The position numbers were made by a program, and so were the translations under genes. From Pyrinomonadaceae bacterium (GTDB lineage Bacteria > Acidobacteriota > Blastocatellia > Pyrinomonadales > Pyrinomonadaceae), in assembly GCA_041746675.1 (NCBI GenBank), contig JBGTGO010000050.1, positions 958 through 64,957 on the forward strand: a stretch of 64,000 nt of DNA, given 5' to 3'. The stretch's first letter is position 1. Each line of letters begins with the position of its first letter. The notes below the pieces were generated by a model. The model had not been told where the DNA came from, made no database searches, and saw only the letters and a list, made by a program, of their open reading frames with translations. Of the stretch, positions 3,759-26,567 are shown in pieces.

Positions 3759-5321
3759 ATGACCAACCGCACTCAAATGCAAAATATACGAAAGATTCGT
3801 CCCGCCCGCAGACGCTCGTCGCTTCTGTGGCTGATACCGACACAGTTGGCGGCAGTTATTACCGCTTTGGGAGCGGCAATGGGCGAAAATCTTTTGCGGA
3901 TGGTTTTACTCGGCGGAATGTTAAGCACGATGCTCGTGCCGCTGATGGTCAGTCTTGAAGCGGGATTGATGGCGATTATGATTTTTGAGCCGTTTCGCGG
4001 ATTTCTGCGGCGGGCACAGTATATTCTCGTTCCATATTCGCAAACCGAGCCGATTCACTTACTTGTTCCCGTTGCTACGTTCGCCGCTTTTACAATCATT
4101 TTATTTCGCCACAAACTCGAAACGATTCGGCTCACACCGCTTGCCGGATGGACAACGGTGCTGGCAGCGATTTGTTTCGTGCAGATTTTCAATCCGCTGC
4201 AAGGCGGCATTTTTATTGGTTTTACCGGTGCACTTTTTTATCTCGTGCCGATGGCTTGGTTTTATTTCGGGCAAACCGTCAAAGAAGAATTCGTCCCGAA
4301 GTTGTTACGCGTCATCGTCGGTCTCGGTTTAATTACGTCGCTTTACGGCGTTTATCAGCTTGTTTTCGGTTATCCGTCTTTCGAGAAATACTGGATTGAT
4401 AACACCGACCTTTACAGCTCAATCGCCGTTTTTAACATTCAGCGTGCTTTGGCGACATTCAATAATTCGGAAGAATGGGGAAGATACATTCAAATCGGCT
4501 GCACCATCGCCATCGGCTTGGGAATGTCGCGTGAGGAAGGCGGCAAGCGTCTTGCGTGGTTCAGTGCCGCCGGTTTGCTGTTTTTAATGATTGCTTTCAC
4601 CGGACAGCGTACCTCGATTTTCGGCGTGATGCTGTCCGGTGCGATTTTATTTTTGACCGGTGCAAAAAGTTTTATGAATGCCGTCGCCAGACTAATGCTG
4701 ATGTGTACTCCAATCGTTTTGATAGTCGCTTTATCCAACCCGATGAGCGACGATGCCGGTTACGAAATTGACGAGAGCGACCGCATCGGCACGATGCTGA
4801 CGCACACGACGAAAGGCACGGTCAACCCGACGGGCGAAGGCAGTTTGGACGCACGATTTGACACCTGGACAAATGTTATCACGCGAGATTTACCGTCAAA
4901 TCCGGTCGGCACGGGCTTAGGCTCGACGACGCTTGCCGCCAGCCGCGAACGAATTGACGATGATGTGCCGATTGACAACCATTTTTTAAGTCTGGCGATT
5001 TCCGCCGGAATTCCCGCCGCACTGCTTCTAATTTTTATATTAGTTCGTGCCGCCATTTTTTGTTTTCGCGGCTGGCGGCGTTCCGAATCCGGGACGAGCG
5101 AAGAGAATTTGTGGCGAATAATGTTGGCTTTGATGGCGGCGTTTATTCTCAATAATTTTTTCGGCACGTCATTTACGATCTACTCGGTCGCACCGATTGG
5201 CTGGCTGCTCGTCGGCTATATCAGTGCCGCTTACGGTAAACAGGAATCAGAGCTTGCCGAAAGCCGCACCGCCGTCGAAGAAAACTCCCGATGGCTGAAC
5301 GCTGAAAGAGATTCATATTAA
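3759..5321 (+). CDS. O-antigen ligase/Wzy-like polymerase family membrane protein
   Basis: Many hydrophobic segments plus one large hydrophilic loop. Has a Wzy_C-like stretch ([20 protein letters not shown]). Sits inside a Wzx/Wzy-type locus. Confidence 0.6.
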
Positions 5322-5325: not shown

Positions 5326-6111
5326 ATGCCTATTTTACAAATGATTCGGACTGATCCGGATAATTCGGTGACGGAAGCTTGCCGGCAATTTCCGTCCGTC
5401 GAATTAACGCTGGAAAGCGGTGTGGCAGACGTTTGGCTGGCACGGCTGGACGCTGAAAACACGGCAGAATTAGAGTTGATCATATCCGCTGACGAGCGAG
5501 CAAGAGCCGCACGTTTTCGGTTTGAAACGGACAAAAAAAAGTTCATCGCGGCACGTGCTATTTTGAGAATCATTCTCGGCAAATATCTGCGAACAAATCC
5601 GCACGAAATTTGTTTTGAATATAATCAATACGGCAAGCCGTCAATCGGCGGAGGACGGCGGACAGAAATCAAATTCAATCTTTCGCATTCGGACAATCTC
5701 GCACTTTTTGCCGTTACTAAAACGCGGGAAATCGGTATTGACATCGAGTGCGTTAAGCCAGGACTTGTTGATGAATCAATGGTGTCGCAGTGCCTGACGT
5801 GGCGGGAAACCGAGCATCTTCAAACACTTTCCGAAACAGACCGGGATTTGTTTTTTTTCGATTGCTGGACCCGCAAAGAAGCCTTTCTCAAAGCGTGGGG
5901 AAAAGGTTTGTCGCTGCCGCCTAATGAAATTGAAACATTATCGCTTTCAAAATTTTCAGCCGGTTTTTTTGAACACGGTGCAGAATCTCCGAAAATCTTT
6001 TGGGCTTTTCAAAAACTTCCTTCAATTTCGGGTTACGCGGCGGCGTTGGCAATTGAAGGCGGAAGCGTGCCGGTAAGATTCCGGCGACTTTCGGCGGCGG
6101 ACTTATTATAA
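5326..6111 (+). CDS. Sfp-type 4'-phosphopantetheinyl transferase
   Basis: Motifs GKPSI, FNLSHSDNLALFAV, EIGIDIE and WTRKEAFLKAWGKGL. Lies immediately upstream of the NRPS genes. Confidence 0.85.
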   Translation: MPILQMIRTDPDNSVTEACRQFPSVELTLESGVADVWLARLDAENTAELELIISADERARAARFRFETDKKKFIAARAILRIILGKYLRTNPHEICFEYNQYGKPSIGGGRRTEIKFNLSHSDNLALFAVTKTREIGIDIECVKPGLVDESMVSQCLTWRETEHLQTLSETDRDLFFFDCWTRKEAFLKAWGKGLSLPPNEIETLSLSKFSAGFFEHGAESPKIFWAFQKLPSISGYAAALAIEGGSVPVRFRRLSAADLL

Positions 6112-6458: not shown

Positions 6459-9400
6459 ATGGACGGAACATTAACGAAACGACTGGAAAATCTATCGCCC
6501 GCCAAGCGTGTTCTGCTTGAAATGAAGCTAAAGGAGAGAACTGCCGCTTCGATTAAAGAACCGTTTTCGATTTCAAAACGGCAGAATGCCGATGTCGCAC
6601 CGTTGTCTTCAAATCAGGAAAGTCTGCTTTTTATGGAGCGGCTCAATCCGAACACCGCGACCTATAATCTTTATGAAGCGATACAAATAACGGGAGATTT
6701 GAATTTCGATGCCTTGCAGAAAACTATTGATGAGATTGTCGTGCGGCACGAATCGCTGCGGACGAATTTCAGAGAAATCGACGGTCAGACGCGGCAAATT
6801 ATCAATCCACCGCAGAGCGTTCAGATAAAAATTTCCGAATTGCCGCAATCGTCGGTTGAAGAACAGGAGCGGCTGGCACTTGAGATATTAAACGCCGAAG
6901 TCAATCGCCCGATGGATTTGCGGCGGGACTTATTGATCGAAGCGACGCTGGTTAAACTCGCCGCCCACGAACATTTTTTTCTGATCAAAATGCACCACAT
7001 TATCAGCGACGGCTGGTCAATGGGCGTTTTTTGGAAGGAATTTACGCACCTTTATCAAAGTTTTTCTCAAGATGAAACGCCTGCACTGCCCATACTTCCG
7101 ATTCAATTTGGCGATTACGCAATTTGGGCAAGCGAACAACTTATAAAAGAAGAAACGCGGCAAGTTGAATATTGGAAAAATCAACTGAAAGACGCACCTG
7201 TTTTGTTGGAATTGCCGACGAGCCGTCCGCGTCCCGCCGTCCAGACCTACCGCGGGACACAGGAAATCAGTCTTCTTCCGGTTGAACTCGGTAATAAATT
7301 AAAAGAATTCAGTCGCCGGGAAAACGTTACTCTTTTTATGACTCTGCTGGCGGCTTTCAATGTTCTGCTCGCACGATATACGGGACAGGAAGATTTAATC
7401 GTCGGCACGCCGTTTGCCGGTCGCAGCCGCACGGAAACCGAGAATCTAATCGGCTTTTTCGTCAACACGCTCTCGCTGCGTGCCGATTTATCGGGCGACC
7501 CGACGTTTCGACAATTATTGCGGCAAACGAGAGACTCGACGCTCGAAGCGTTTTCTTATCAGGATTTGCCGTTTGAACAAGTCGTCGCCGCCGTTCAACC
7601 TGAACGCAGCTTGAGTTATAATCCGATATTTCAAGTCGCTTTCGCACTTCAACCCGACTCGGAATCGTCGCTGGAAATTTCAGGACTGGAAATTCAAACG
7701 GTCAAACTCGGTTCGGTAACGTCTAAATTCGATTTGTTTCTGTCCGCTAAAGAAACGGCTGACGGTTTGTCCGTGACCGTCGAATACAGCACCGATCTAT
7801 TTGATTCCGACACCATCAAGCGACTGATGAATCATTACCGAAATCTGCTCGAAGCTCTGGTCGTCAATCCGAAACGGTGCATTTCGGAATTTCAATTATT
7901 AAGCGAATCGGAACGGCAGCAAATACTGGTTGATTGGAACGACACGACAACCGAATACCCGAATCAATGTCTGCAGCAGCTTTTTGAAGCACAAGCCGCA
8001 AAACAACCGGAGGCGATTGCCGTTAACGCACCGGAAGGCAGTCTTACTTACGACCAATTAAATCGGCAAGCTAACAAAATCGCACATTATCTTAGAAAAT
8101 GCGGTGTTCAGCCGAATTCGCCGGTCGGAATTTTTATGGAGCGTTCGGCGTTAATGACGGCGGGCATTCTCGGCATTTTGAAAGCCGGCGGTGCGTATCT
8201 GCCGCTCGATGCGGGCAGTCCGCAAACAAGATTGCGGCAAATGATTGAAAACGCTGATACAAAAGTGATTTTAACGAATGCCGAAAAAATATCTCTGCTG
8301 CCGACAACCGATGCGAAAGTGATTTGTCTCGATACCGATTGGGAAACTATCGCTGCCGAAAATGACGATAATCCGTCGAATTTGAATCAGCCGACTGATT
8401 TGGCATATGTGATTTACACATCCGGTTCAACCGGCGAGCCGAAAGGAACGCTGATTCCGCACCGTGCCGTCAACCGTTTGGTTTTTAACACCAATTACAT
8501 CCAAATTGATTCGACCGACTGTATCGCACACGTTTCCAATGTCGCGTTCGATGCCGCCACTTTTGAATTATGGGGTGCACTTCTGCACGGAGCAAGGTTG
8601 GTTATTTTCAATAAAGATTTACTTCTTTCGCCCGAAGAATTCAGTCTGGAATTAAAGAAGTGGAAAGTTTCGGCGATGTTTTTAACCTCGTCGCTTTTCA
8701 ATCTTTTGTCCCGCGTCAAACCGGACGCGTTTCAAACGTTGAAAACGCTCATCGTCGGCGGCGAAGCACTTGACCCGACGGCTGTCCGCTATGTGCTGGA
8801 AAATAATCCGCCCGCCAGATTGGTCAATGGTTACGGACCGACCGAAACAACGACTTTCGCCGTTTGCCGCGAGATAAAAAATGTCGCCCCCGATGCTCAG
8901 ACGATCCCGATTGGGCGACCGATTTCAAACACCGCGATTTATATATTAGATTCAAACCAAAATCCGGTTCCGATTGGTGTGAGAGGCGAAATTTACATCG
9001 GCGGCGATGGTTTAGCACAAGGTTATTTGAATCATCCCGAACTGACGGCGGAAAAATTCATTTCGCTTTCATTGAATAAATTAGGTGTATCCGTTGCCGA
9101 TTCGATGAACGATGAAACTCAAAACGTCAGATTATACCGAACCGGCGACATTGGACGTTATTTGCCGGACGGAGCTATCGAATTCATCGGACGAACTGAT
9201 AATCAGATCAAACTACGCGGGTTTCGCATCGAATTGGGCGAAATCGAAGCCGCCGTCAATTCACATCCGGCAATCAAAGAAGGCATCGTCGCCGTCAAAA
9301 AAACGGGCGGCGAAAAGAAAATAGTCGCGTATTATGTTCTCGCCGAAGGTGCTGCACTGACGAGCGGAGACGCACGCGATTTTCTAAAGGAACGGCTGCC

Positions 9401-10607
9401 GGATTATATGATTCCGTCGGTATTTTTTGAAGTCACCGAATTTGTCCTTAATCAGAACGGCAAAATTGACCGCCGCAAACTGCCCGCACTCGAAGAAATT
9501 TCGGTTCCCGCAACGGCGGCGATTGAAACGCCGAAAGACGAGTTGGAGATAAAACTGACGTGGATTTGGCAGAAAGTTCTCGGACTGAAATCAATCGGCA
9601 TTAACGACAATTTTTTTGAATGCGGCGGACATTCGCTCGCCGCCGTCCGGCTGTTTTCGGAAATTGAAAAGACGCTCGGCTGCCGTCTGCCACTGGCATC
9701 CCTCTTTGAGTCGCCGACCATTGATCGGCTCGCTGCTTTGATTCGTGCGGGCGGCTGGAAATCCGATTGGCAAGCACTTGTTCCGCTGCGACCGACGGGC
9801 GGCAAACCGCCGTTTTTCTGCGTTCATGCAGTCGGCGGAAACATTCTCGAATACAAAGACCTCGCCGGACATCTGGATTCAGACCAGCCTTTCTACGGTT
9901 TGCAGTCATTCGGTCTGGACGGTAGATCCGCACCGCTCACCGATATTGAACAAATGGCAATTGCGTATCTCAAGGAGGTTCGGAAAATTCAGCCGCAGGG
10001 TCCGTATTATCTCGGCGGACGTTCTTTCGGCGGAATGGTCGCTTATGAAATGGCTCGGCAGCTCGTCGAACAGGGAGAAACGGTCGCACTGCTGGCAATT
10101 CTCGACACTTACCCGAAAGGCTGGCTGAAAACTTATTCCGATGACGAAGCACGCAGCTTTAGAAAACAATTTCGGCAGATGAGAATCAAAAGCCATCTGG
10201 AAAATTGGAAACAATTAGACATCACCGGAAAAGCTGAGTATTTTCTCGAAAAAGCCAATTTCAAAAAACGCAAATACAAAAATCTGTTATGGCAATACAC
10301 GCGAAAATCGAGTGATAAAACGAAGCAGTCGGTTGGTGCGACGATTCGCAATATCGAAGAAATAAATTATCTCGCCATCAGAAAATTTGTTCCGAAATTT
10401 TATCCGGGAATCGTAACCTTTTTCGGTGCAAGCGAAGAAATTTGCCCCGAAGAGAATTTGACCGGCTGGCGACGGCTGGCACAGGGCGGTGTCGAAGTCG
10501 TCGAAGTTCCCGGCGATCATCAGACGATGATTAAAGAGCCGTATGTGGGCGAGTTGGCGGAAGCCCTCGAAAAAAGTATTAGTCTTTCGATGAACAACAA
10601 AAGTTAG
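6459..10607 (+). CDS. Non-ribosomal peptide synthetase, terminal module C-A-T-TE
   Basis: C domain HHIISDGWS (6993-7013). A domain LAYVIYTSGSTGEPKG, NGYGPTETT and NQNGKIDRRKLP. Carrier FFECGGHSLAA (Ser codon 9633-9635). Thioesterase GGRSFGG (Ser codon 10023-10025) and PGDH. Confidence 0.95.
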   Translation: MDGTLTKRLENLSPAKRVLLEMKLKERTAASIKEPFSISKRQNADVAPLSSNQESLLFMERLNPNTATYNLYEAIQITGDLNFDALQKTIDEIVVRHESLRTNFREIDGQTRQIINPPQSVQIKISELPQSSVEEQERLALEILNAEVNRPMDLRRDLLIEATLVKLAAHEHFFLIKMHHIISDGWSMGVFWKEFTHLYQSFSQDETPALPILPIQFGDYAIWASEQLIKEETRQVEYWKNQLKDAPVLLELPTSRPRPAVQTYRGTQEISLLPVELGNKLKEFSRRENVTLFMTLLAAFNVLLARYTGQEDLIVGTPFAGRSRTETENLIGFFVNTLSLRADLSGDPTFRQLLRQTRDSTLEAFSYQDLPFEQVVAAVQPERSLSYNPIFQVAFALQPDSESSLEISGLEIQTVKLGSVTSKFDLFLSAKETADGLSVTVEYSTDLFDSDTIKRLMNHYRNLLEALVVNPKRCISEFQLLSESERQQILVDWNDTTTEYPNQCLQQLFEAQAAKQPEAIAVNAPEGSLTYDQLNRQANKIAHYLRKCGVQPNSPVGIFMERSALMTAGILGILKAGGAYLPLDAGSPQTRLRQMIENADTKVILTNAEKISLLPTTDAKVICLDTDWETIAAENDDNPSNLNQPTDLAYVIYTSGSTGEPKGTLIPHRAVNRLVFNTNYIQIDSTDCIAHVSNVAFDAATFELWGALLHGARLVIFNKDLLLSPEEFSLELKKWKVSAMFLTSSLFNLLSRVKPDAFQTLKTLIVGGEALDPTAVRYVLENNPPARLVNGYGPTETTTFAVCREIKNVAPDAQTIPIGRPISNTAIYILDSNQNPVPIGVRGEIYIGGDGLAQGYLNHPELTAEKFISLSLNKLGVSVADSMNDETQNVRLYRTGDIGRYLPDGAIEFIGRTDNQIKLRGFRIELGEIEAAVNSHPAIKEGIVAVKKTGGEKKIVAYYVLAEGAALTSGDARDFLKERLPDYMIPSVFFEVTEFVLNQNGKIDRRKLPALEEISVPATAAIETPKDELEIKLTWIWQKVLGLKSIGINDNFFECGGHSLAAVRLFSEIEKTLGCRLPLASLFESPTIDRLAALIRAGGWKSDWQALVPLRPTGGKPPFFCVHAVGGNILEYKDLAGHLDSDQPFYGLQSFGLDGRSAPLTDIEQMAIAYLKEVRKIQPQGPYYLGGRSFGGMVAYEMARQLVEQGETVALLAILDTYPKGWLKTYSDDEARSFRKQFRQMRIKSHLENWKQLDITGKAEYFLEKANFKKRKYKNLLWQYTRKSSDKTKQSVGATIRNIEEINYLAIRKFVPKFYPGIVTFFGASEEICPEENLTGWRRLAQGGVEVVEVPGDHQTMIKEPYVGELAEALEKSISLSMNNKS

Positions 10608-10631: not shown

Positions 10632-11480
10632 GTGATTTATTTATTGAGTTTTATATTAACGATTCCAACGGAAACGAATCGGCTGACAATTGTCAGCGAT
10701 TATCTTTACGAGATGATTAACGGTCTCGCCGGAAGATCCTGGATTTTCGACAATTTAACTGATTTGCCGCTGGAAAGCAATTTGGTCAAAGCGGCGTTAA
10801 TCGGTGCTTGTTTTATGTTCGCGTGGCTGGCGGGGGCGGACGACGCGGAAGTCGCTCGCCGTCGTAAAATTCTTTTGATTACGCTGATCGCTTCGGTTTT
10901 TGTCATCGTCACGACCAAGACTTTATCGAAAACGATTTTTCTGCCGCGTCCGTTTATTCAATCACAGAAAACTTTTCATCTCGAAGGCGAACAATTGGTG
11001 GAGAGTCGGCGGCTCGATTACCGCGTGCCGCTCGACGATGAAAATCAAAAAAGCTTTAAGGCTCTGCAAAACGGGGAAATTATTCAAAACGATTTGGGTT
11101 CATTTCCGAGCGACCACGCCGGATTTTATATGACTTTAGCCGTCGGAATCCTGCTCGCGTGCCGTTCCGCCGGTATAATTGCACTTTTTTGGACGATTTT
11201 CGTCACCCTCGGAAGCCGCATCATTACCGGTCAGCATTCGCCGCTCGACATCGTTGTCGGTTCGGGCATCGGTATCGGAATCCTGCTCGTGCTGCAAGTT
11301 GTTATCGGCAATCTCGGCAAACGGATTATTGATCCGATTGTTAATTGGACGTTAAAAAACTCCGCCGTTTCTTCCGCTATTATTTTCGTTGTCTTGTTCG
11401 AGGCGGTAAATAAGCTGGAAGATGTCCGCCTGATAGCAAAGGTCGCCGTGGACATCGCCAAACATTTAATCAGAGGTTAA
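10632..11480 (+). CDS. PAP2-family (type 2 phosphatidic acid/undecaprenyl-PP-type) phosphatase, membrane protein
   Basis: The three PAP2 motifs are present: KTIFLPRP, FPSDHA and SRIITGQHSPLD. Several TM helices. GTG start. Confidence 0.8.
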   Translation: MIYLLSFILTIPTETNRLTIVSDYLYEMINGLAGRSWIFDNLTDLPLESNLVKAALIGACFMFAWLAGADDAEVARRRKILLITLIASVFVIVTTKTLSKTIFLPRPFIQSQKTFHLEGEQLVESRRLDYRVPLDDENQKSFKALQNGEIIQNDLGSFPSDHAGFYMTLAVGILLACRSAGIIALFWTIFVTLGSRIITGQHSPLDIVVGSGIGIGILLVLQVVIGNLGKRIIDPIVNWTLKNSAVSSAIIFVVLFEAVNKLEDVRLIAKVAVDIAKHLIRG

Positions 11481-11485: not shown

Positions 11486-12415
11486 ATGAAAGACTTTATT
11501 AAAACGGAAAATTTACAAATGACAACTAGGAAATTCTGCTTTTTCGCTTTATTTTTAAGCTCTGTTCTGCTCGGCGGCTGCGGACTCGACCAGAAAGGAA
11601 TGGTTTTGCTGACCGACAAATCTTACCGTGCGTCGGTCGTCGGAACTAACAATGACGGCTTTACCGTGCCGGACGGAATTTTGTGGAAACAGGGAAAACT
11701 GTATATGGCGGACGAAGGCGGCGGTGCGTTTCGCGTCTGGACGAACGCCGACGATGTAAAAACTCTGGCTGATTCGAGTTTGGGAATTTTGTCGCCGGAA
11801 GATTTGGTAATGGACGCACAAGGGAATATCTTTTTTACCGACGACGATGCCGGCGGCGTTTGGGAAATAAATGACCAGAGAAAACCGTCTCTGCTCGCGG
11901 GAAAAGACAAAGGCTTGATTTCAACCGAAGGAATCGCTTTATCACCGAACGGACAAATTTTAGTCGGCGACGGCAAACAGCATCAGGTTTTCAGCGTCAG
12001 CAAAAGCGGTGATGTGTCTGTTTTTCTCGGAACGGATTACGGCATCACCAAACCGGAAAGTATGGTTTACGACGACAGAGGAAATCTTTATGTCGCCGAC
12101 AACGAAGACGACATACTTTACCTGCTAACGCCGGATATGAAACTCCATCGCCCGCTCGAAAATCGGGAAGGATTTTCCCCCGAAACGATTTGGTATTCGC
12201 ACGGAACGCTTTACATTACCGACAGCAGCAACGGGAAACTCTTTTCTTACAAGCCCGAAGAAGGCTTAAAAACGATTGCCGTTTTCGGCGGAAAACTGGC
12301 GGCGGTCAGCGGCATCACGACCAATGACAACGGCAGCGTTTATCTTTCCATTCAGACAAATCTGAAAAAGAAGCTCGGTTATATCGTGCGACTTGATAAG
12401 GAAATGCAGCCATAA
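11486..12415 (+). CDS. Lipoprotein with six-bladed beta-propeller (SMP-30/gluconolactonase/NHL-like) repeats
   Basis: Lipobox LLGGC. About six repeats of the type G.LY.AD/G.IFFTD/G.LYITD spaced roughly 45 aa apart. Confidence 0.6.
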   Translation: MKDFIKTENLQMTTRKFCFFALFLSSVLLGGCGLDQKGMVLLTDKSYRASVVGTNNDGFTVPDGILWKQGKLYMADEGGGAFRVWTNADDVKTLADSSLGILSPEDLVMDAQGNIFFTDDDAGGVWEINDQRKPSLLAGKDKGLISTEGIALSPNGQILVGDGKQHQVFSVSKSGDVSVFLGTDYGITKPESMVYDDRGNLYVADNEDDILYLLTPDMKLHRPLENREGFSPETIWYSHGTLYITDSSNGKLFSYKPEEGLKTIAVFGGKLAAVSGITTNDNGSVYLSIQTNLKKKLGYIVRLDKEMQP

Positions 12416-12497
12416 CGCGGACATAAAAACTCGTTTTGTTTAACGTCGGTTCGATATAAAATTTAAAGTGTGAAAGTAAAAATATAACTAACCAAAT

Positions 12498-12576
12498 GCA
12501 CGAAAAAAACACGAAAGTTTACGAAAATATGATATGACTCAAATGGAGTTTTATCTTTTATTCGTATTTTTCGTAG
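12498..12576. repeat. Palindromic ACGAAA-repeat element in the 5' region of the flippase-NRPS gene
   Basis: GCACGAAAAAAACACGAAAGTTTACGAAAATA (ACGAAA starting at 12500, 12511 and 12521) faces the inverted TTATTCGTATTTTTCGTAG (12558-12576). A related element lies at 62487-62609. Confidence 0.6.
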
Positions 12577-12654
12577 TCAAATTTCTTTATGTCGAACTTA
12601 ACGTTGTTCAAGAAAATTTTTGGATAGATCGTCCGATTAAAACTTTCATTTACT

Positions 12655-15600
12655 TTGAATAACCGCCGATTCAAAGTCGTGCGTTCAAAAATACCGCTCG
12701 CTTTGTTATTCGCTTCATTAGCCGCTGACTTTTTGATGAAGAAAAATCTAACCATCATCTTTTTCGCCAACTTTTTCACGCTTCTCTCCGGCGTGGTTAC
12801 GAGCCTTTTGACCGCGTGGGCATTAGGACCGGAAGGTCGCGGCGATTTGGCGGTCATCGTGCTTTATCCGAATGTCGTGGCACTGGCGGTCGGATTCGGT
12901 CTGCCGCAGGCACATCGGTATTTTCTCGCCCGCGAACCCGAAGAAATTTCTCCGCTTTTTTCAAACGCCGTTATTTTTGCCGTCGTAACGGGCATTTTGG
13001 CTTTGGCGGCGGCGGAATGGATTGTGCCGTCGCTCATTGGTACACGCAGCGAAGCCGTAGTTTGGCTGGTTAAAATTTACCTGATAAACATTCCGCTCGC
13101 TTTGCTTTACGATTTGATGGCGGGAATGCTCGAAGGCTCGCGGCAATTTAAATGGGCGGCACTGGCACGAATTGTTTTTTTCGGTATTCAATCCACCGTT
13201 TATTTTCTGCTGTGGAATTTCGGGCTTTTGACGGTTTATACTGCCGCACTGACGATGATTGTCGCACAGACGGCGAATACTTTAACCGCATCAATCAGCG
13301 TTTATCGGGTTTTGAAACCGCGATGGAAACCGTGTTGGATAACCTGGAAAAAATCAATCACTTTCGGATTGAAGTATCACGTCGGCGTTGTTACATCTTT
13401 TACGACTTTGCGGCTCGACCAACTTATGCTCAGCTCGATGGCAACGAGCGTCGAAATCGGGCTTTATGTGATTGCCGTCCGCTTATCCGAAATTACGACC
13501 GTGCTGGCATCGTCAATCGCCGAAGTTCTGATGCCGGAAGTCGCCGCTTCTAAACACGCAGAACGCTCGGCACAACTGCTGCTGCGAAGTTTGCGGCTGA
13601 TGATTTACGTTTATCTGCTGATTTTGATTCCGCTGTTCTTACTCGTGCCGACGCTTTTAGAATTCGCCTTCGGCACAGAATTTCTCGCCGCCGCCGGAAC
13701 GCTTCGTCTGTTGTTGGTCGCTTCGATGGTGTGGAGTATTGGTGCGATCATTATCAGCGGTCTGAACGGCTTCGGCTATCCCGGTTTAAGCACCGTTTCG
13801 CGGCTCTCGTCAGCCGTCGTCACAGTTTTTGCTCTTCTCTACTGGCTGCCGCGATACGGAATTGTCGGTGCGGCACTCTCATCGCTGGTCGGTTACAGCG
13901 TGATGCTCGCCGTCGCACTCTTCTGGCTTGTCAAAAAAAATAATATTCGATTGGGCGAGGTTTTTCGTCCGCGTCTGAGCGATATACCTATGAAAAAGTT
14001 TATAACCGTCTTAAGTTCACGTTTCAACTTGGAAACACAGGCAAATATCATTGATGCACCGAAAAGCGACGGCTTTCACCAATTATTCGAGCGGCAAGCT
14101 GCCGCACAGCCCGACCGCGTGGCGATTGTTTGCAAGGGAGAGCAACTAACTTACGGCGAACTCAACGCACGTGCCAATCAACTGGCACGGCATCTGCGTT
14201 CGCTCGGTGCGATGCCGGAAACTTTGATTCCCGTCTGCACTGACCGCTCCGTCGAAATGGCAATCGGCATTTTAGGGATTCTCAAATCCGGTGCGGCGTA
14301 TGTTCCGATTGACCCAACTTATCCAGCCGAACGCATCGAATTTATGCTGGCGGAAATTTCCGCACCGTTTATCGTTACTCAATCGTCATTCTTACAATCG
14401 TCAGCGATTAAAAAGATTTTGCTTGATACCGACCGGGAACTTATCGCCGAAAATTCGACTGACAATCCGCTGCCGACCGCCGCCGCCGAAAATCTCGCTT
14501 ATGTGATTTACACTTCCGGTTCGACCGGAAAACCTAAGGGAGCGATGTTGACGCACGCTAATCTTTGTCACTACGTGCGGGCATTGCAGCACGAATTTTA
14601 TCTCACGCCCGACGATAAATATCTGCATCTGGCATCAATCGCTTTTTCATCGGCACGACGGCATCTGCTATTTCCGCTGGCACAAGGTGCGAGCGTCATA
14701 ATCGCCGACGAAGAACAGAGAATGGACGCACTGCCTCTGTTCAAACTCATCAAAGAACAGTCGGTAACTGTTTTCGACACTGTTCCTTCGTTTCAGAGAC
14801 ATTGTATGAACGCCCTGCTCGAACTCGACACCGAGCAAAGAAACGATTTATTAAACAACGATTTGCGATTAATCGTTTCGGCGAGCGAACCTTTATTGTC
14901 GGATATTCCCGCGACCTGGATGTTTGAGTTTAAACATCCGGCACGGCACGTTCATATGATCGGACAGACGGAAACGAGCGGCATCGTTTCGATCAATCAT
15001 ATTACAGAAGCTGATGCCGCCGGAGCGGTGCGAACGGTTTCGGTCGGACGTTCGATTGCTAATACTAAAATTTATCTGCTCGACGAAAACCGTCAGCCGG
15101 TCGCACCGGGAAAAGCCGGAGAAATGTATGTATGCGGAAAGGGTTTGGGGCGCGGCTACTTGAATCGCCCGGAATTGACGGTGCAGAAATTCATCGAATT
15201 GTCGGTAGAAAATGAGTCAGACGCGGAAGAATTCAAAGTTCGGCGCGTTTGCCGAACCGGAGATTTCGCGCGATTGCTGCCGGATGGCAGGTTGGAATGT
15301 CTCGGCAGACAGGATTTTCAAGTCAAAGTGCGCGGGCAGCGTGTCGAACTCGGCGAAATCGAAGCGTTGCTCATCAGCAATCAAAATGTCGGTGAATGCT
15401 CGGTCATCGGGCACGAAGATGTGCCGGGAACAATTCAATTGGTCGCTTACGTCGTGTCGCGCCACTCGTCCGATTCGCTCATCGAAGATTTGCGAATATT
15501 GACCAAAGAAAAGCTGCCCGATTACGCACAGCCGTCGGCTTTCGTGTTGTTGAATGCTTTGCCGCTCAACGCGAACGGAAAAATAGACCGCAAAAATCTG

Positions 15601-18600
15601 CCGCGTCCCGATGCTTCGGCTTTCGCAGTGGACACAACTTTCGTCGCTCCGCGCAACGCGACCGAGCGAATCATCGCCGGAATCTGGGCGGAGGTTTTAG
15701 GATTTAACGACATCGGCATCAACGATAATTTTTTTGAATTGGGTGGTAATTCATTGCTTGCCAGCCGTGTTATTTCCCGTCTGCGAAAGGCTTTCAATCT
15801 GGAAATGCCGCTGAGGACAATTTTTGAAGCACCGACCATCGCAGAATTAGCGAAAAAAACCTCATTTTACGGGCGGCAAAACGATTTCGTCCCGCTGAAT
15901 GTCTTGAAAAAAGCCGGAAGACCGGCGGCGATTCCGCTTTCTTTCGCCCAGCAGCGTCTCTGGTTTCTGGCGCAGATGGAAATCGATTCTTCAACTTACA
16001 ATATGAGCGAAGTCGTTCGTTTGGACGGAAAATTGCAGACGGAAGCACTGCGTTCCGCTCTGGAAAACGTCATCGGGCGGCACGAAATTCTGCGAACGTC
16101 TTTCGAGTCAATCGGCGGACAGCCTTCTCAAATCGTCGCTTCCGAAGCCTATGTTGATTTCTCCATCGCCGACTTGACCGATTTTCCATTTGACATGTGC
16201 GAAGCGGAAGCCCGCAAAATCGCTTCTGAATTTTCGGCACGAGCCTTTGATTTGACCGGTTCACCGCTGCTTCGCGTAAAAGTGATTAAACTTCAGGAAA
16301 CTGAACATTTACTCGCCGTCGTCTTTCACCACATTATCAGCGACGGCTGGTCGGTCGGGGTATTTCTCAAGGAATTGAGTGCGTTTTACGAAGCGGAAAT
16401 TTCCGAGTCTAACGCTTCGGTTGCCAAACTGCCGATTCAATACGCCGACTACGCTTTGTGGCAGCAGGAATGGCTGCGAACCGAACAATATGACCGGCAG
16501 TTGGAATTCTGGAAAGAGCATTTGGAAGGTGCGCCCGCGCTGCTCGAATTACCGACCGATTACCCGCGTCCCGCCGTTCAGCGTTATCGCGGGGCGCGAT
16601 GTTCGGCTTTTGTGTCGAATGATTTAACCAAAAAAATAAACGCACTCGGCAGACGCGAAGGTGCGACGCTGTTTATGACGCTTCTTTCGGCTTGGCAATT
16701 ATTGCTTTTGAGATACAGCGGACAGGAACGAATCGTCGTCGGAACGCCCATTGCCGGAAGAACGAAAACGGAAACCGAAAATCTGATCGGCTTTTTCGTC
16801 AACACATTAGCATTAAACGGCGATTTGTCGGGTAATCCGACGTTTAGAGAACTGCTGCGCCGAACCAGAGAACGTGCTCTTGATGCGTATGCCAATCAGG
16901 AACTGCCGTTTGAAAAACTTGTCGAAGCGATTAATCCCGAAAGAAGTTTGAGCTACGCACCTCTGTTTCAGGTGATGTTCACACTGCAAAACGCTCCGGC
17001 AGCGAACAGAGACTTTGCCGATTTAAAGCTGAATCGTGAAAAAACTGCGGGTAAAACGGCTAAATTTGATCTGAGTTTGGACGTTTACGAAAAAGCCGAC
17101 GGACTCGAACTCGAACTAGAATACGACACCGATTTGTTTGCCGAAGAAACCGTCCGGCAGATGCTCGAACATTTCCGCACGATTTTAGAAGCGATAACCG
17201 AAAATGCCGAACAACGGCTGGCGAGCGTTCCGGTTTTGACAGCGAACGAGCGGCATCAATTGTTCGACGAATGGAACAATTACGACACCGAAGTTCCGCC
17301 CGTCTGCCTGCACAAATTAATCGAAGCACACGTCGAGCAAACGCCCGATGCGATTGCCGTCGTCTGGCAAAACGAGCGGCTTTCCTACGCGGATTTGAAT
17401 GCGCGGGCAAACCGTCTGGCACATTTTTTACAAAAACAGGGCGTTAAACCTGAAACTATTGTCGGCGTTTATGTTGAACGTTCGCTTGATATGATTGTCG
17501 GAGTTTTGGGCGTGCTGAAAGCCGGCGGTGCGTATCTGCCGCTTGATGCCAATTATCCGGCGGAGAGATTGCAGCATATGGTCAGCGATGCCGGGGTTTC
17601 GATATTGATTTCGCAAGAAAATCTCAAATCGAAGACGGCGGAATTTTCTTCGCGGCAAATTATTTGTCTCGATTCCGATTGGTCGGAGATCAGCGGCGAA
17701 TCAGCCGATAATCCCGACAGCGATGTCGCGCCCGACAATCTGGCTTATGTGATTTTCACGTCCGGCTCAACCGGCAAATCGAAGGGCGCGATGATTACGC
17801 ACCGCAGCGTTGTCAGTGCTTACGCCGGTTGGGAAGACGCTTATAAGCTTTCGTCGCTGAAATGCCACCTGCAAATGGCGAGCTTTTCATTCGACGTGTT
17901 CACCGGAGATTTGACCCGCACACTGTGCAGCGGCGGAACGCTCGTTTTAGTTCCGACCGAATTTCTGCTCGAACCCGAAAAATTGGAACGATTGATGCGC
18001 GACGAAAAGACAGAGTGTGCAGATTTTGTTCCGGCGGTGATGCGTCCGTTAATCGAGTATCTGGAAAATACAGGGCAAAAACTTGATTTTATGAAGGTTG
18101 TTTCCGTTGGTTCGGACATCTGGCAGATGGATGAATTCCGTCGTCTGCGGCGCGTCTGCCGCGAAGACGCACTGGTCGTCAATTCTTACGGCATCACCGA
18201 AACGACGATTGACAGCACTTATTTCGAGATGACGGCGGAAGACGAAACTGCCGAAGGCATTATTCCAATCGGGCGACCCTTTGCCAACACGAAGCTTTAC
18301 ATACTCGACGACAACCGGAATCTTTTACCGGCACGTGTGCCGGGCGAATTATACGTCGGCGGAAATGGTGTCGGTCGCTGCTATTTGAATCGCCCCGAAT
18401 TAACCGCAGAAAAATTTATCGAATGGATGCCGTCCGGCGAATCCGCCGTGTTGCCGCTCAGATTATATAAAACGGGCGACTTCGCCCGCCGCCGCCACGA
18501 CGGAATGGTTGAAATTTTAGGACGCACCGATTATCAAGTGAAACTGCGCGGTTTTCGAGTCGAACTCGGCGAAATCGAAGCCGTTATTTCAACGCATCCC

Positions 18601-19296
18601 GACGTGAACGAATGCGTGGTCGCACTTCGTGAAGACATTCCCGGAAACAAGCAGTTAATCGCTTACCTGACGACCAAAGAAAATGGAATCAATTCCGCCG
18701 AACTGCGCCGTCACGTCAAATCCCTCCTGCCCGAATATATGATGCCCGCCGCGTTCGTGCTGATGAAAGAGTGGAAGCTGACACCGAACGGCAAAATTGA
18801 CCGCCGCCAATTGCCCGCACCCGAAGACACACTGATTTCCGCCGAAACCGAATACGCCGTGCCGCGCACGCCACTCGAAGAAAAAATGGTCGGGATCTGG
18901 TCGAATCTGCTGCGCCGCGAACACATCGGAATTAACGATAATTTCTTTGATCTGGGAGGTCATTCGCTGCTGGCAACGCAGGTTACGTCCCGCATCCGCG
19001 ATGCTTTCGGGATAGACATTCCGCTCAGAATGCTGTTTGAAACGCCGACGATTGCGGGCTTGGCGGAACAAATTTCTCACTTGATCGGTTCGGAGAATGG
19101 CGAACAATCAAATAGCTTTGAGACAAATTACAAAGAATCCACCGCCGCTACCGTGTCGCCGGAAGATAATGATTCGTTGCAATACGACGCGGAACTCGAG
19201 CGTTTGTTAGCCGAAATCGAAAGCGTTTCGGATGAGGAAGCACAGCAGCTTATTGCGGCGGAATCCGATTTTTCCTATGTTCCTTTAGCAGAATGA
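12655..19296 (+). CDS. Fusion protein: Wzx/MOP-family flippase domain + NRPS modules A-T-C-A-T
   Basis: A single uninterrupted ORF. The TTG at 12655 opens it, but the ATG at 12736 (MKKNLTIIFF…) is the more plausible start. Motifs, in order: the flippase-like membrane region, LAYVIYTSGSTGKPKG, FFELGGNSLLA, HHIISDGWS (16327-16347), LAYVIFTSGSTGKSKG and FFDLGGHSLLA. Confidence 0.9.
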   Translation: MNNRRFKVVRSKIPLALLFASLAADFLMKKNLTIIFFANFFTLLSGVVTSLLTAWALGPEGRGDLAVIVLYPNVVALAVGFGLPQAHRYFLAREPEEISPLFSNAVIFAVVTGILALAAAEWIVPSLIGTRSEAVVWLVKIYLINIPLALLYDLMAGMLEGSRQFKWAALARIVFFGIQSTVYFLLWNFGLLTVYTAALTMIVAQTANTLTASISVYRVLKPRWKPCWITWKKSITFGLKYHVGVVTSFTTLRLDQLMLSSMATSVEIGLYVIAVRLSEITTVLASSIAEVLMPEVAASKHAERSAQLLLRSLRLMIYVYLLILIPLFLLVPTLLEFAFGTEFLAAAGTLRLLLVASMVWSIGAIIISGLNGFGYPGLSTVSRLSSAVVTVFALLYWLPRYGIVGAALSSLVGYSVMLAVALFWLVKKNNIRLGEVFRPRLSDIPMKKFITVLSSRFNLETQANIIDAPKSDGFHQLFERQAAAQPDRVAIVCKGEQLTYGELNARANQLARHLRSLGAMPETLIPVCTDRSVEMAIGILGILKSGAAYVPIDPTYPAERIEFMLAEISAPFIVTQSSFLQSSAIKKILLDTDRELIAENSTDNPLPTAAAENLAYVIYTSGSTGKPKGAMLTHANLCHYVRALQHEFYLTPDDKYLHLASIAFSSARRHLLFPLAQGASVIIADEEQRMDALPLFKLIKEQSVTVFDTVPSFQRHCMNALLELDTEQRNDLLNNDLRLIVSASEPLLSDIPATWMFEFKHPARHVHMIGQTETSGIVSINHITEADAAGAVRTVSVGRSIANTKIYLLDENRQPVAPGKAGEMYVCGKGLGRGYLNRPELTVQKFIELSVENESDAEEFKVRRVCRTGDFARLLPDGRLECLGRQDFQVKVRGQRVELGEIEALLISNQNVGECSVIGHEDVPGTIQLVAYVVSRHSSDSLIEDLRILTKEKLPDYAQPSAFVLLNALPLNANGKIDRKNLPRPDASAFAVDTTFVAPRNATERIIAGIWAEVLGFNDIGINDNFFELGGNSLLASRVISRLRKAFNLEMPLRTIFEAPTIAELAKKTSFYGRQNDFVPLNVLKKAGRPAAIPLSFAQQRLWFLAQMEIDSSTYNMSEVVRLDGKLQTEALRSALENVIGRHEILRTSFESIGGQPSQIVASEAYVDFSIADLTDFPFDMCEAEARKIASEFSARAFDLTGSPLLRVKVIKLQETEHLLAVVFHHIISDGWSVGVFLKELSAFYEAEISESNASVAKLPIQYADYALWQQEWLRTEQYDRQLEFWKEHLEGAPALLELPTDYPRPAVQRYRGARCSAFVSNDLTKKINALGRREGATLFMTLLSAWQLLLLRYSGQERIVVGTPIAGRTKTETENLIGFFVNTLALNGDLSGNPTFRELLRRTRERALDAYANQELPFEKLVEAINPERSLSYAPLFQVMFTLQNAPAANRDFADLKLNREKTAGKTAKFDLSLDVYEKADGLELELEYDTDLFAEETVRQMLEHFRTILEAITENAEQRLASVPVLTANERHQLFDEWNNYDTEVPPVCLHKLIEAHVEQTPDAIAVVWQNERLSYADLNARANRLAHFLQKQGVKPETIVGVYVERSLDMIVGVLGVLKAGGAYLPLDANYPAERLQHMVSDAGVSILISQENLKSKTAEFSSRQIICLDSDWSEISGESADNPDSDVAPDNLAYVIFTSGSTGKSKGAMITHRSVVSAYAGWEDAYKLSSLKCHLQMASFSFDVFTGDLTRTLCSGGTLVLVPTEFLLEPEKLERLMRDEKTECADFVPAVMRPLIEYLENTGQKLDFMKVVSVGSDIWQMDEFRRLRRVCREDALVVNSYGITETTIDSTYFEMTAEDETAEGIIPIGRPFANTKLYILDDNRNLLPARVPGELYVGGNGVGRCYLNRPELTAEKFIEWMPSGESAVLPLRLYKTGDFARRRHDGMVEILGRTDYQVKLRGFRVELGEIEAVISTHPDVNECVVALREDIPGNKQLIAYLTTKENGINSAELRRHVKSLLPEYMMPAAFVLMKEWKLTPNGKIDRRQLPAPEDTLISAETEYAVPRTPLEEKMVGIWSNLLRREHIGINDNFFDLGGHSLLATQVTSRIRDAFGIDIPLRMLFETPTIAGLAEQISHLIGSENGEQSNSFETNYKESTAATVSPEDNDSLQYDAELERLLAEIESVSDEEAQQLIAAESDFSYVPLAE
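12736..13950 (+). other. Wzx/'polysaccharide biosynthesis protein' (MOP superfamily) membrane domain of the fusion ORF
   Basis: About a dozen hydrophobic segments with family-typical stretches (LTAWALGPEGRGDLAV, GIVGAALSSLVGYSVMLAV). Boundaries are approximate. Confidence 0.7.
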
Positions 19297-19362: not shown

Positions 19363-19531
19363 TTGCCTGTCGCTTTTGTTTGATTTCATCGGTTCATTAA
19401 TCATTGCCGAAACACTGTAAATATCATTTTTGTCAGTGCGGTGAAAAAATTTGAAAGTTCCTGCTAATTAACTGTTTATAACGGCTAAGCAATTAATTTT
19501 GCGTACTGATTTACAAATAAACAGAACAACA

Positions 19532-20737
19532 ATGAAGATTCTTTTTTACAATCATCAGGGAAAAGTCAGCGGTGCGGAACGGGTTATCTTGCTCGTTTTG
19601 AAGCGTTTGAACCGGGACTTATTCGAGCCTGTGATGGTTTGTCCGGCGACAGATACGATGGCTGAAGAAACTGCTAAACTCGGCATTCCGTGCCGGATGA
19701 TAAATCAGTTTGAAGCCCGTTTCACCGTTCGTCCCGACAAATTGATGCACTATTTCGCTTCGTTCGTCCAGACATTACGACAACTGAGAGCCGAAATTAG
19801 CCGCGAAGAACCGGCTGTCATTCACGCCAACAGCATTCGTTCCGGTCTGGTGGCGACGGCGGCGAGTGCGGGGATGAAAATTCCGGTTATCTGGCATTTG
19901 CAGGATGAATTGGGAACTCATCCGATCAGCACTTTAATAAGGATTTTCGCCGCCTGTTTCACGCAAACACGCTTGATGCCGGTTTCCGAAGCGACGGGCA
20001 AAAGTTTTCGCGGAGTTCTTCTGCGATTTTTCGGCAGACATCTGCAAGAGTGTGTCGTTCACAACGGAATCGAGATGGAAAAATTCAAGTTTAACTCAAC
20101 AAATCGTGGACAAATCCGAAAGGAATTCAATCTGAGCGACGATGAACTTGTGTTCGGTATCGTCGGACAAATTACGCCGCGGAAAGGTCAGTTAGAGCTT
20201 TTGCAAACATTCGCCGCAATGCAAAAACAGATGCCGTCAACGCTGCTCGTTGTCGGGGCACCGGTGTTCAATCTGGATTATCTTTACCTGGAAAAATTAA
20301 CAGCAACGGTCAAAAATTTGGGGATCGAAAATCGCGTCAAGTTTCTCGGTGCACGGCGAAACGTGGCGGCAATTATGCAGTCACTCGACGCACTGGTAAT
20401 TAATTCCAAAAGCGAGGCACTTGTTCTGGTGGCAATCGAAGCGATGGCGTGCCGTACGCCGGTTATCGCTACCGATGTCGGCGGCACGAATGAAATCATC
20501 ACGCACAAAGAAAACGGCTGGCTGGTTTCCTTCGGCGACAAACGGGCTTTAACCGACGCACTCTTGACAGTCGGAAGCCAACCTGAACTGCGTCGTCAAT
20601 TTGCGGAAAAAAGCGAAAAAATCGTTACGGCACGCTTGAATGCAGAACATTTCATCAATCAAGTCGAAGATTTTTACCGGCACTGCGGTGCGGGCAAAAT
20701 GCAAGCGATGAGCGAGGATTTGGCAACGCAAAGTTAG
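19532..20737 (+). CDS. Glycosyltransferase family 4 (GT-B fold)
   Basis: MKILFYNHQGKVSGAERV N-terminus and an EX7E-type C-terminal motif (SEALVLVAIEAMACRTPVIATDVGG). I prefer the ATG at 19532 over the TTG at 19499. Confidence 0.85.
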   Translation: MKILFYNHQGKVSGAERVILLVLKRLNRDLFEPVMVCPATDTMAEETAKLGIPCRMINQFEARFTVRPDKLMHYFASFVQTLRQLRAEISREEPAVIHANSIRSGLVATAASAGMKIPVIWHLQDELGTHPISTLIRIFAACFTQTRLMPVSEATGKSFRGVLLRFFGRHLQECVVHNGIEMEKFKFNSTNRGQIRKEFNLSDDELVFGIVGQITPRKGQLELLQTFAAMQKQMPSTLLVVGAPVFNLDYLYLEKLTATVKNLGIENRVKFLGARRNVAAIMQSLDALVINSKSEALVLVAIEAMACRTPVIATDVGGTNEIITHKENGWLVSFGDKRALTDALLTVGSQPELRRQFAEKSEKIVTARLNAEHFINQVEDFYRHCGAGKMQAMSEDLATQS

Positions 20738-20788
20738 ACAAACAATATACCCCACGACTTTATTCGTGCGGTATATAAGGAAACATTA

Positions 20789-21946
20789 ATGTCAAAAGTA
20801 GCTCTAGTTCACGATTATTTTGTGCAGATGGGCGGTGCTGAAAAAGTCGCCGAAGAGATGCACAAAATATTTCCCTCCGCACCGATGTTCACCACCGTTG
20901 ACACTCGCACCGAAGTTCCAGCCGAATTGCGGAATTCTCGCGTTCATACGTCATTTATGCAGCGTCTGCCGGGAATAGAAAAGAATTTTCGACATTATTT
21001 CCCCATTTATCCGTTTGCCGTCGAGAGTTTAGATGTAAATGATTACGACTTGATTTTAAGCAGCTCTTCGGGCTACGCCAAAGGAGTTCGCAAGCGGCAC
21101 GGTGCGATACACATCTGTTACTGCCACACGCCGATGCGTTGGGCTTGGCGGTATGAGGATTATGCCGCCCGCGAGCAGTTCGGCGGAGTCAAACGCTTTA
21201 TTTTACCGCCGATTTTAGCGGGTTTGCGTCATTGGGATTTGCGTGCCGCCGAACAGCCGGATTTTTACATCGTCAATTCGAGCAATGTGGCACGCCGCGT
21301 CAAAGAAATTTACGGACGCGATTCAGTTGTCATACCGCCGCCGATTGATGTCGGGCGTTTTTTACCCGACGAACCGGACGAGGATTTTTACCTGATTTTG
21401 TCACGTCTGATTTCATATAAAAAGTTGGATTTGGCAATTGAAGCCTGCAAAAAACTCAATCGCCGTTTAATCGTCATCGGCGAAGGACCGGACAGAAAAC
21501 GGCTCGAACGGCTTGCCGGAAAACAGACCGAGTTTTTAGGACGGCAGCCCGATCAAGTCGTTACGAGATATGCGAGCCGCTGCCGTGCCTTGCTGTTTCC
21601 CGGCGAAGAAGATTTCGGAATGGTGCCGCTCGAAATTAACGCATCCGGTCGTCCGGTCATTGCATACGGTGCGGGCGGTGCGACGGAAACGGTTGTTGAC
21701 GGCGAAACCGGCATATTTTTTGACGAACAGACCGTTGAATCTCTCATTGCGGCAATTGAAGAATTCGAGAGTCGGCTCTGGAATCGGCGATTGATGCGGA
21801 AACACGCGGAAAAATTTGACACGCAGGTTTTCACCAAGCACGTCAGCGATTTTCTGCACAAAGTCGCTCCGGCATCGTGTGTCCAAGAAATTCCGGAAAC
21901 GAAAGAACGTTCATCTTTCAGCATTCGGAAAGCTCATGCGGATTAA
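20789..21946 (+). CDS. Glycosyltransferase family 4 (GT-B fold)
   Basis: VALVHDYFVQMGGAEKV N-terminus and EEDFGMVPLEINASGRPVIAYGAGG in the C-terminal domain. Confidence 0.85.
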   Translation: MSKVALVHDYFVQMGGAEKVAEEMHKIFPSAPMFTTVDTRTEVPAELRNSRVHTSFMQRLPGIEKNFRHYFPIYPFAVESLDVNDYDLILSSSSGYAKGVRKRHGAIHICYCHTPMRWAWRYEDYAAREQFGGVKRFILPPILAGLRHWDLRAAEQPDFYIVNSSNVARRVKEIYGRDSVVIPPPIDVGRFLPDEPDEDFYLILSRLISYKKLDLAIEACKKLNRRLIVIGEGPDRKRLERLAGKQTEFLGRQPDQVVTRYASRCRALLFPGEEDFGMVPLEINASGRPVIAYGAGGATETVVDGETGIFFDEQTVESLIAAIEEFESRLWNRRLMRKHAEKFDTQVFTKHVSDFLHKVAPASCVQEIPETKERSSFSIRKAHAD

Positions 21947-25702: not shown

Positions 25703-25936
25703 AATAATTTTTAAAGCGGAAACTCAAGCGACATTTATCCGCTAAATTTCCGCTTGATTGGTTGTTAGTTAACTTGCACTGTAATTTCGATAAAATTTTG
25801 TTTTTCAAAAAAGATTCTACAACCTGCGTGTTACTGACAAGTCAAATCCAGGTCGGCTTATTCAGCAAAAGTTTCGATCAAATGACATATCGAATGTCCG
25901 TCCGGCAGAGCGTTATCCATTTTATCCCACTTTGTT

Positions 25937-26415: not shown

Positions 26416-26447
26416 TTAAGTAAAGTAATTCCAAAATACATTTCAAG

Positions 26448-26463: not shown

Positions 26464-26567
26464 ACCTTGTTTGTTTGCAGTCAGAAAAGATCTAGATAGG
26501 AATAACAAATTTTCAACGAAAACCTTTGTTTCCAACAGATAAAGATTTTTTGTCAAATCTGAAAATA

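Follow-up and report, generated by a model that had tools for sequence, protein, structure and literature searches.

A recurrent Wzx-type flippase–nonribosomal peptide synthetase fusion in a predicted polysaccharide operon of Pyrinomonadaceae

The fused gene and its domain organization

This report describes a gene of a Pyrinomonadaceae bacterium (Acidobacteriota; Blastocatellia; Pyrinomonadales) in which a Wzx-type flippase is joined in frame to a two-module nonribosomal peptide synthetase (NRPS). The sequence analysed, called the window below, is a stretch of 64,000 nucleotides (GenBank assembly GCA_041746675.1, contig JBGTGO010000050.1, positions 958 to 64,957 of the forward strand), and all coordinates are those of the window unless another locus is named. 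The original prediction, made from the letters of this stretch, had described one uninterrupted frame of 2213 codons, and the open reading frame (ORF) and its translation confirmed this: 12655..19296 (+) is a single open ORF with a mechanical start at TTG 12655. The start was reset to ATG 12736 because all homologues begin with MKKN.. in an alignment with 16 of them. With the stop at 19296, the fused gene (12736..19296, +) encodes a protein of 2186 aa. This is a Wzx-like flippase followed by the domains A-T-C-A-T, where A is adenylation, T is carrier and C is condensation; the ORF, Pfam and the homologue alignment agree on this layout.

Pfam detected Polysacc_synt (PF01943) at residues 29–294, with a score of 43.9 bits (gathering score, 28.2). 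It was followed by AMP-binding/AMP-binding_C/PP-binding, then by Condensation (residues 1093–1536) and again by AMP-binding/AMP-binding_C/PP-binding, which makes two copies of each of these three domains and one Condensation domain (both residue ranges are numbered from 12655). The proposal that two NRPS modules follow the flippase in the same frame was therefore borne out by the domain search.

The flippase core (residues 1–418) occupies 12736..13989 (+). Its C-terminal tail, which also serves as the linker (MKKFITVLSSRFNLETQANIIDAPKSDG..., about 30 aa; 13990..14085, +), leads straight into the first adenylation domain A1 (14086..15582, +), recognized by Pfam, by its extracted specificity code SSRDVAMGIK and by its nearest solved structures. 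The first carrier domain T1 (15673..15855, +) was found by Pfam and carries the motif FFELGGNSLLA at 15730–15762 with its Ser codon at 15751–15753. The condensation domain (15931..17262, +; Pfam) has the motif HHIISDGWS at 16327–16353. The second adenylation domain A2 (17311..18813, +; code DVGDVVSIDK; Pfam and code extraction) and the second carrier domain T2 (18886..19074, +; Pfam) have approximate limits, and T2 contains FFDLGGHSLLA at 18943–18975 with its Ser codon at 18964–18966. The positions given earlier for both carrier motifs and their Ser codons were right, and so was the start of HHIISDGWS at 16327, while its end lies at 16353 and not at 16347. An acidic C-terminal tail extends from T2 up to 19293. 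The NRPS core motifs SGSTGxPKG, GGxS, HHxxxDG and the A10 lysine are all present. A scan of 12300–14200 revealed no internal promoter or terminator signal.

Family, fold and topology of the flippase part

The AlphaFold2 model of the first 445 residues had a pLDDT of 79.6 and a pTM of 0.76. When this model was compared with the PDB by Foldseek, the best match was the lipid II flippase MurJ (6nc6; TM 0.76/0.73, probability 1.00), followed by the lipid III flippase WzxE (9g9n; TM 0.71/0.76, probability 1.00). MATE transporters ranked after these two, and ClbM of the colibactin cluster was among them. PF13440 and PF01943 were also detected in the fused orthologues. A PDB sequence search with the flippase profile gave no match, and no NCBIfam flippase model matches the N-terminal part. 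The assignment to the Wzx/MOP flippases, first made from a series of hydrophobic segments, agreed with both lines of evidence: PF01943 scored above its threshold, the model matched MurJ and WzxE and fits the MOP transporter fold of two six-helix bundles, and neither the HMM search nor the structure search placed the N-terminal region outside the MOP/Wzx superfamily. The N-terminal part is a MOP/Wzx-type flippase, and the translocation of an oligosaccharide linked to undecaprenyl diphosphate is its predicted role.

WzxE is a protein of 12 helices with both termini in the cytoplasm. By homology with it, the junction between flippase and synthetase should face the cytoplasm, the compartment in which an NRPS has to operate. 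Lys and Arg are abundant in the tail that follows the last helix.

Recurrence of the fusion

When the same combination of flippase and A domain was sought in databases, it was found in nine other sequences, and the frame was kept in spite of the divergence of the linker. The fused set thus comprises ten distinct sequences: the window and those that we label L010, L011, L021, L022, L023, P0121, L090, L091 and L092. Five of them (L010, L011 and L021 to L023) are GTDB species representatives with an in-frame flippase-to-synthetase ORF, none of which contains an N. Four of these five ORFs were scanned with Pfam, and all four contained Polysacc_synt together with A, T and C domains; L021, the remaining one, encodes a product identical to protein P0122. 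In the exhaustive search of representative proteins, two fused proteins ranked at the top, namely P0121 (1514 aa, cut by the contig end) and P0122, the product of L021. The fusion was also seen in P0121/P0354, and the P0121 cluster includes one full-length protein, of 2175 aa. Giant NRPSs made up the matches listed after the first two, and this search is uninformative on other phyla. Three metagenome contigs (L090, L091 and L092) complete the set.

The fused carriers are Blastocatellia/Pyrinomonadaceae from independent assemblies. Their genome records belong to separate metagenome-assembled genome projects, and the contig names bear the k-mer tags of short-read assemblers. At NCBI, two of the fused proteins are named merely "amino acid adenylation domain-containing protein". 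Exact-sequence look-ups showed that the NHL-repeat protein of the window, its family 4 glycosyltransferase (GT4) and its fused protein are not on record, and the 38-nt junction of the window, with or without one additional base, was absent from the JGI metagenome contigs.

The first protein search with the flippase part listed, as its best 120 homologues, nothing but stand-alone proteins of about 430–440 aa. This result reflects a length bias, because the search lists nothing longer than about 480 aa even when an A domain is the query. A reading of the fusion as an artefact, which had drawn on these 120 homologues and on a difference of 1 nt from the relative L001, was dropped, since the search was biased by length and fused ORFs were found in genome, representative and metagenome searches. 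Taken together, these comparisons indicate that the fusion is very probably genuine and evolutionarily maintained.

Two of the fused genes, L010 (2979–11111 of its locus) and L011 (3544–11571), are about 500 aa longer than the window gene and end with an extra C-T, giving Wzx-A-T-C-A-T-C-T with a second condensation-type and a third carrier domain.

The junction and the history of the fusion

The boundary between the two parts lies at ATGAAAAAG (13990–13998), where the window has five A's (13993–13997) and where relatives differ by plus or minus 1 nt. The closest protein, P0001, shows 84% identity to the query and 88% over the flippase core, and its cluster is fully syntenic with that of the window. 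There, a flippase of 439 aa and an A-T-C-A-T synthetase of 1757 aa are encoded by separate genes, which lie in different frames and overlap by 53 nt. This two-gene state was found in three independent samples and then in a fourth (L089). In the DNA alignment at the junction, the window reads CCTATGA-AAAAGTTTATA and L001 reads CCGATAAGAAAAGTTTATG. At 14002–14004 the window has ATA where the split relatives carry the ATG start codon of the NRPS, which argues that the fused state of the window is genuine.

The linker spans the region from the conserved D-I/F-P of the flippase tail to the F-x-Q-L-F at the start of the A domain. Among the fused sequences it is unequal in length and divergent, and it is always in frame and free of stop codons; in L010, L092 and P0121 its length is exactly that of the window. 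In the sister clades there are two genes with an intergenic spacer, and the frame of the NRPS with respect to that of the flippase is 0, +1 or +2, without preference.

In a neighbour-joining tree built on the flippase core, one clade with a bootstrap of 100 united the window, L010, L011 and L021 to L023 with the split L001 and L007 to L009. P0121 and L090 to L092 were found after the tree had been built and are not in it; their identity to the window, 75–82%, falls inside the range of the clade. In the split members of this clade, the flippase and NRPS genes overlap by 43–53 nt, and the split NRPSs begin with sequences (MTILKSDF.., MSLFKTRF..) that have their homologues in the flippase tails of other lineages (..KLLASLRLRFN*, MKKFITVLSSRFN..). 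The overlap and these homologous N-termini fit a secondary fission by plus or minus 1 nt in the A-run. The simplest history would begin with a single fusion at the root of the clade, when the stop codon was lost and the spacer was absorbed into the frame. The fusion would then have been retained under selection, and at least two secondary fissions by plus or minus 1 nt in the A-run would have followed, +1 in L001 and -1 in L008/L009.

The Lys-Lys codons at the boundary form a run of 5–8 A's in most fused lineages (the window, L010, L011, L021 and L090 to L092) and also in L007. L007 is in frame at the A-run, and a deletion of about 29 nt (at about 1900–1990 of its locus) removes the conserved start of the A domain, FHQLFE, and creates a stop; this sequence may represent a pseudogene or a fault of assembly. 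At the least, the A-run would be a hot spot of mutation, and this would account for the switches between fused and split states. A -1 slip at the run would lead to a stop after 11–22 codons and so to a free flippase, and it is a matter of speculation that the run acts as a slippage site for this purpose.

Predicted chemistry of the synthetase

The codes of the A domains were extracted by alignment to GrsA-PheA, a reference that returned its known code DAWTIAAICK. For A1, the code was adjusted manually and then verified by tblastn. A1 has the code SSRDVAMGIK, with Ser in place of Asp235, while A2 and the A domain of the partner protein described below (A3) keep the Asp. Asp235 in the pocket of an A domain binds the alpha-amino group of the substrate. 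The catalytic motifs of A1 are intact despite the missing Asp235, and its nearest solved relatives (LgrA, ApnA, McyB and GrsA) are ordinary A domains of NRPSs that activate amino acids. The code SSRD[VL]AMGIK was invariant at about 30 loci (36 partial or full matches), at 100% down to 49% identity, and this constancy holds for the fused, split and non-adjacent states of the genes. Because A1 is without Asp235, its starter is probably not an alpha-amino acid. The pocket points to a conserved unusual substrate, probably a hydroxy-, keto- or other non-alpha-amino carboxylic acid with polar groups, which makes this domain a concrete target in the search for a new NRPS substrate. The direct adenylation of a lipid-linked uronic acid by A1 was kept only as a case of low probability, since a closed pocket would hardly admit a lipid-linked sugar.

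The assembly line appears to extend beyond the fused protein. A separate partner NRPS (6459..10607, +) with the layout C-A-T-TE, where TE is thioesterase, supplies a terminating module, and a Sfp/HetI-type 4'-phosphopantetheinyl transferase (PPTase) is encoded at 5326..6111 (+). From their domains and positions, the C-A-T-TE protein would complete a three-module NRPS, and the PPTase of the same operon would serve it. The code of A2, DVGDVVSIDK, is close to DVGEIGSIDK, which we take to be an ornithine code, and that of A3, DAFFIGGTFK, resembles what are presumably valine codes. The tentatively predicted product is X-(Orn-like)-(Val-like), which would be released or transferred by the TE.

The polysaccharide operon

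The genes around the fusion are those expected of a polysaccharide pathway, and all of them lie on the + strand. Upstream are a chain-length determinant (GNVR; 107–910), which matches only the C-terminal half of such models, and a tyrosine-kinase-like ORF (926–1576) with a partial match to tyrosine-kinase models. This polysaccharide copolymerase (PCP)/kinase region (107–1576) may be split or degenerate, or it may begin upstream of the window. It is followed by a Wza-type exporter (1590–2282), a priming polyprenyl glycosylphosphotransferase (PGT; 2298..3746; TIGR03025, 418.7 bits against a cut-off of 295.6) and a membrane protein resembling Wzy/O-antigen ligase (3759..5321), whose Wzy_C score of 29 bits is just below the cut-off of 31.7. 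The PPTase and the partner NRPS come next. A PAP2 membrane phosphatase (10632..11480), with a weak match to undecaprenyl-diphosphate phosphatase, and a strictosidine-synthase-like beta-propeller protein with NHL repeats (11486..12415) precede the fused gene, and two GT4 glycosyltransferases (19499..21946) follow it. The NHL protein carries a lipoprotein signal (..LLGGC), suggesting that it probably acts outside the cytoplasm; it is a constant companion of PAP2 and the NRPS. The PCP, kinase, Wza and GT4 genes also match models of the XrtA type, all below the cut-offs, and no exosortase was found among the part of the ORFs of the window that was scanned.

Synteny was studied by tblastn of all operon proteins against the 88 loci then in hand. 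The gene combination, with one flippase, remained conserved across Blastocatellia and Pyrinomonadaceae as identity fell to about 50%. At about 50–55% identity (L027, L038, L040, L041 and L049), the order was Wzz-kinase-Wza-PGT-flippase-Wzy-GT4-GT4-PAP2-NHL-NRPS, and the flippase, the only one of the cluster, stood in its classical place between PGT and Wzy. This classical position of a sole flippase suggests that it is the repeat-unit flippase of the pathway and not an added exporter. In the clade nearer to the window, the flippase gene was relocated between NHL and NRPS, and the fusion arose within that clade. In the operon of the window, the fused protein is the only Wzx that was found. From their gene content these operons are supported as a Wzx/Wzy polysaccharide pathway, of which the NRPS, PAP2 and NHL genes are long-standing members.

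Comparison with known systems

NRPSs are usually viewed as soluble enzymes that produce diffusible metabolites, and Wzx flippases as transporters that move sugar repeat units without a fused partner. The families of both parts of the fused protein are well known; the novelty lies in their being covalently united and in the presence of the NRPS module inside a Wzx/Wzy operon. Full-text literature searches returned no description of a Wzx–NRPS fusion or of this locus, in line with the original remark that the architecture was not a described one.

The flippase part shares its Pfam family and fold with the Wzx/PST flippases of the MOP superfamily (for example, WzxE, PDB 9g9n), and its operon, like theirs, also encodes a priming phosphoglycosyltransferase, a Wzy-like protein, a PCP and Wza. 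The difference is an NRPS extension of about 1750 aa, predicted to be cytoplasmic, whereas the described Wzx proteins are, to our knowledge, stand-alone. The synthetase part shares its core motifs with modular NRPS lines, which the A-T-C-A-T and C-A-T-TE proteins and the Sfp-type PPTase resemble, and LgrA, ApnA, McyB and GrsA are its solved relatives. It differs from them in its covalent anchor to a 12-helix transporter (the number of helices being taken from the WzxE match), in its location in a polysaccharide operon and in the starter A domain without Asp235.

Some systems are alike in working or design. The Lipid II pathway (Mur ligases, FemXAB and MurJ) also has a peptide-bearing lipid-linked glycan that is flipped by a MOP protein. 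This is a likeness in working and not in membership, as the peptide here would come from an NRPS and not from Mur ligases or tRNA-dependent transferases; the operon genes scanned included no homologue of Mur or Fem proteins. MprF is a lysyl-phosphatidylglycerol synthase fused to a flippase that moves its lipid product, and so it shows the same design of a cytoplasmic aminoacylating enzyme joined to a flippase. Its domains are not related to those found here. The chemistry of MprF is tRNA based, whereas here it is based on carrier proteins, and the Pfam scan of the whole fused protein gave only Polysacc_synt and NRPS domains and no synthase or flippase domain of MprF. In Dlt (DltABCD) and in AlmEFG of Vibrio, an adenylation enzyme and a carrier put amino acids on envelope glycopolymers or lipid A. 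Dlt needs the MBOAT protein DltB, and AlmEFG needs the acyltransferase AlmG. Both systems rely on small proteins that are not joined to each other and attach one residue only, while the condensation domains and the TE found here suggest that a peptide is made. Among the operon genes scanned there was no MBOAT, DltD or AlmG-type acyltransferase.

Proposed mechanism and alternative explanations

We lean, with some reserve, towards a maintained fusion in which the sole flippase of the operon is joined to modules 1 and 2 of a three-module NRPS, so that a capped peptide would be placed on, or travel with, a lipid-linked glycan. The synthetase would be held at the inner face of the membrane, beside the flippase. 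A short capped peptide would be assembled there from an unusual starter that is not an alpha-amino acid, an Orn-like residue and a Val-like residue. The peptide would be added to the repeat unit linked to undecaprenyl diphosphate, which the priming transferase and the two GT4 enzymes would build, or it would be handed on together with the unit. The flippase domain would then carry the decorated unit to the periplasmic face, where PAP2, the NHL lipoprotein, the Wzy-like protein and Wza/PCP might process, polymerise and export it. The original prediction had proposed that the synthetase is anchored at the flippase, that the two may be mechanistically coupled, and that the product is either exported or attached to the glycan; of these, the linkage of the two parts is supported, and mechanistic coupling and either fate of the product are predictions.

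The join is kept in many lineages of abundant, largely uncultured soil bacteria, inside a conserved polysaccharide operon. As Rosetta-stone evidence, it points to an assembly-line peptide that is part of a lipid-linked surface glycan or travels with it. Its recurrence suggests an undescribed class of peptide-decorated exopolysaccharide or glycolipopeptide, and the fused protein would offer a natural model for the coupling of a synthetase to a transporter.

Several observations weigh against this proposal. In the nearest sampled relative (L001 to L003 and L089; flippase core 88% identical) the two parts are separate genes, and exactly one base of the A-run distinguishes it from the window; the fused state of the window itself is read from its assembled sequence. 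The fusion is not required, as two lineages within the fusion clade and all sister clades use separate genes, and more distant relatives do not even have the flippase next to the NRPS. The count of a single flippase is that of the operon. The number of helices and the side of the C-terminus depend on the WzxE match, as a Kyte-Doolittle count was unclean and is too crude for topology. The Orn-like and Val-like assignments come from a comparison with known codes and not from a predictor. Finally, no obvious enzyme that would join the peptide to the glycan was identified in the operon, where the TE or a C domain would be the only candidates.

One alternative is that the fusion is real yet functionally neutral, with the NRPS product handled independently of the flippase domain and without channelling. 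Adjacent and translationally coupled genes could have fused by loss of a stop codon, and an in-frame spacer would be tolerated since the C-terminus of Wzx is cytoplasmic. The alternation of split and fused states in one clade, in which split forms persist, and the distance of several genes between flippase and NRPS in remote relatives would suit such a history. It accounts less well for the ten fused sequences that keep the frame through a divergent linker of variable length, when the frames of spacer-separated relatives are random, or for the family-wide presence of both genes together with PAP2 and NHL in one operon. We consider a neutral fusion unlikely, although it is an alternative to be taken seriously. 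Somewhat less probable still is a MOP domain that acts as a dedicated exporter of the free NRPS product, like the MATE pumps of other NRPS clusters, and not as a repeat-unit flippase. MATE exporters including ClbM are among the fold matches, and the flippase gene moved beside the NRPS in the very clade where the fusion arose. However, the best fold matches are MurJ and WzxE, which flip lipid-linked glycans, the Pfam families are Polysacc_synt and Polysacc_synt_3, and the protein is the only flippase seen in a complete Wzx/Wzy operon, with the classical PGT–Wzy position in distant relatives.

It appears to us very improbable that the fusion in the window stems from a mistake in sequencing or assembly, or from an inactivating mutation of very recent date, with one base missing at 13993–13997 and really two overlapping genes as in L001. 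It is true that the closest relative, known from four independent samples, differs by one base at the A-run and has two genes, that homopolymers are prone to error, and that the -1 frame of the window is open to the same TGA that ends the flippase of L001. Against this, the run has only five A's, nine other sequences share the in-frame state, three of them (L010, L092 and P0121) with a linker of identical length, and the start ATG of the split relatives is replaced by ATA. A bolder possibility, which we rate about as doubtful as the export of a free peptide, is that the NRPS acts on a sugar-borne or lipid-linked substrate as a nonribosomal counterpart of the synthesis of the Lipid II stem peptide, with flipping gated by the synthetase. 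In that case A1, with its polar pocket (Ser, Ser, Arg, Asp), would activate the carboxylate of a sugar acid or hydroxy acid in the repeat unit, the peptide would be built there, and slippage at the poly-A tract might determine how much of the flippase is fused and how much is free. If this were true, a peptide-bearing exopolysaccharide would be typical of Blastocatellia.

Other regions of the window

At some distance from the operon, the stretch 48001–52000 has a G+C content of 0.32–0.36, compared with about 0.45–0.50 elsewhere. It contains two ORFs on the - strand, at 48795–49787 (no Pfam match) and at 49793–50536.

Directly beside the operon lies a copper-resistance block (23177–37805). It comprises a P-type ATPase with YHS/HMBD domains on the - strand, an outer-membrane factor, a membrane-fusion protein, an RND pump, a cupredoxin, a DUF305 protein and a multicopper oxidase.

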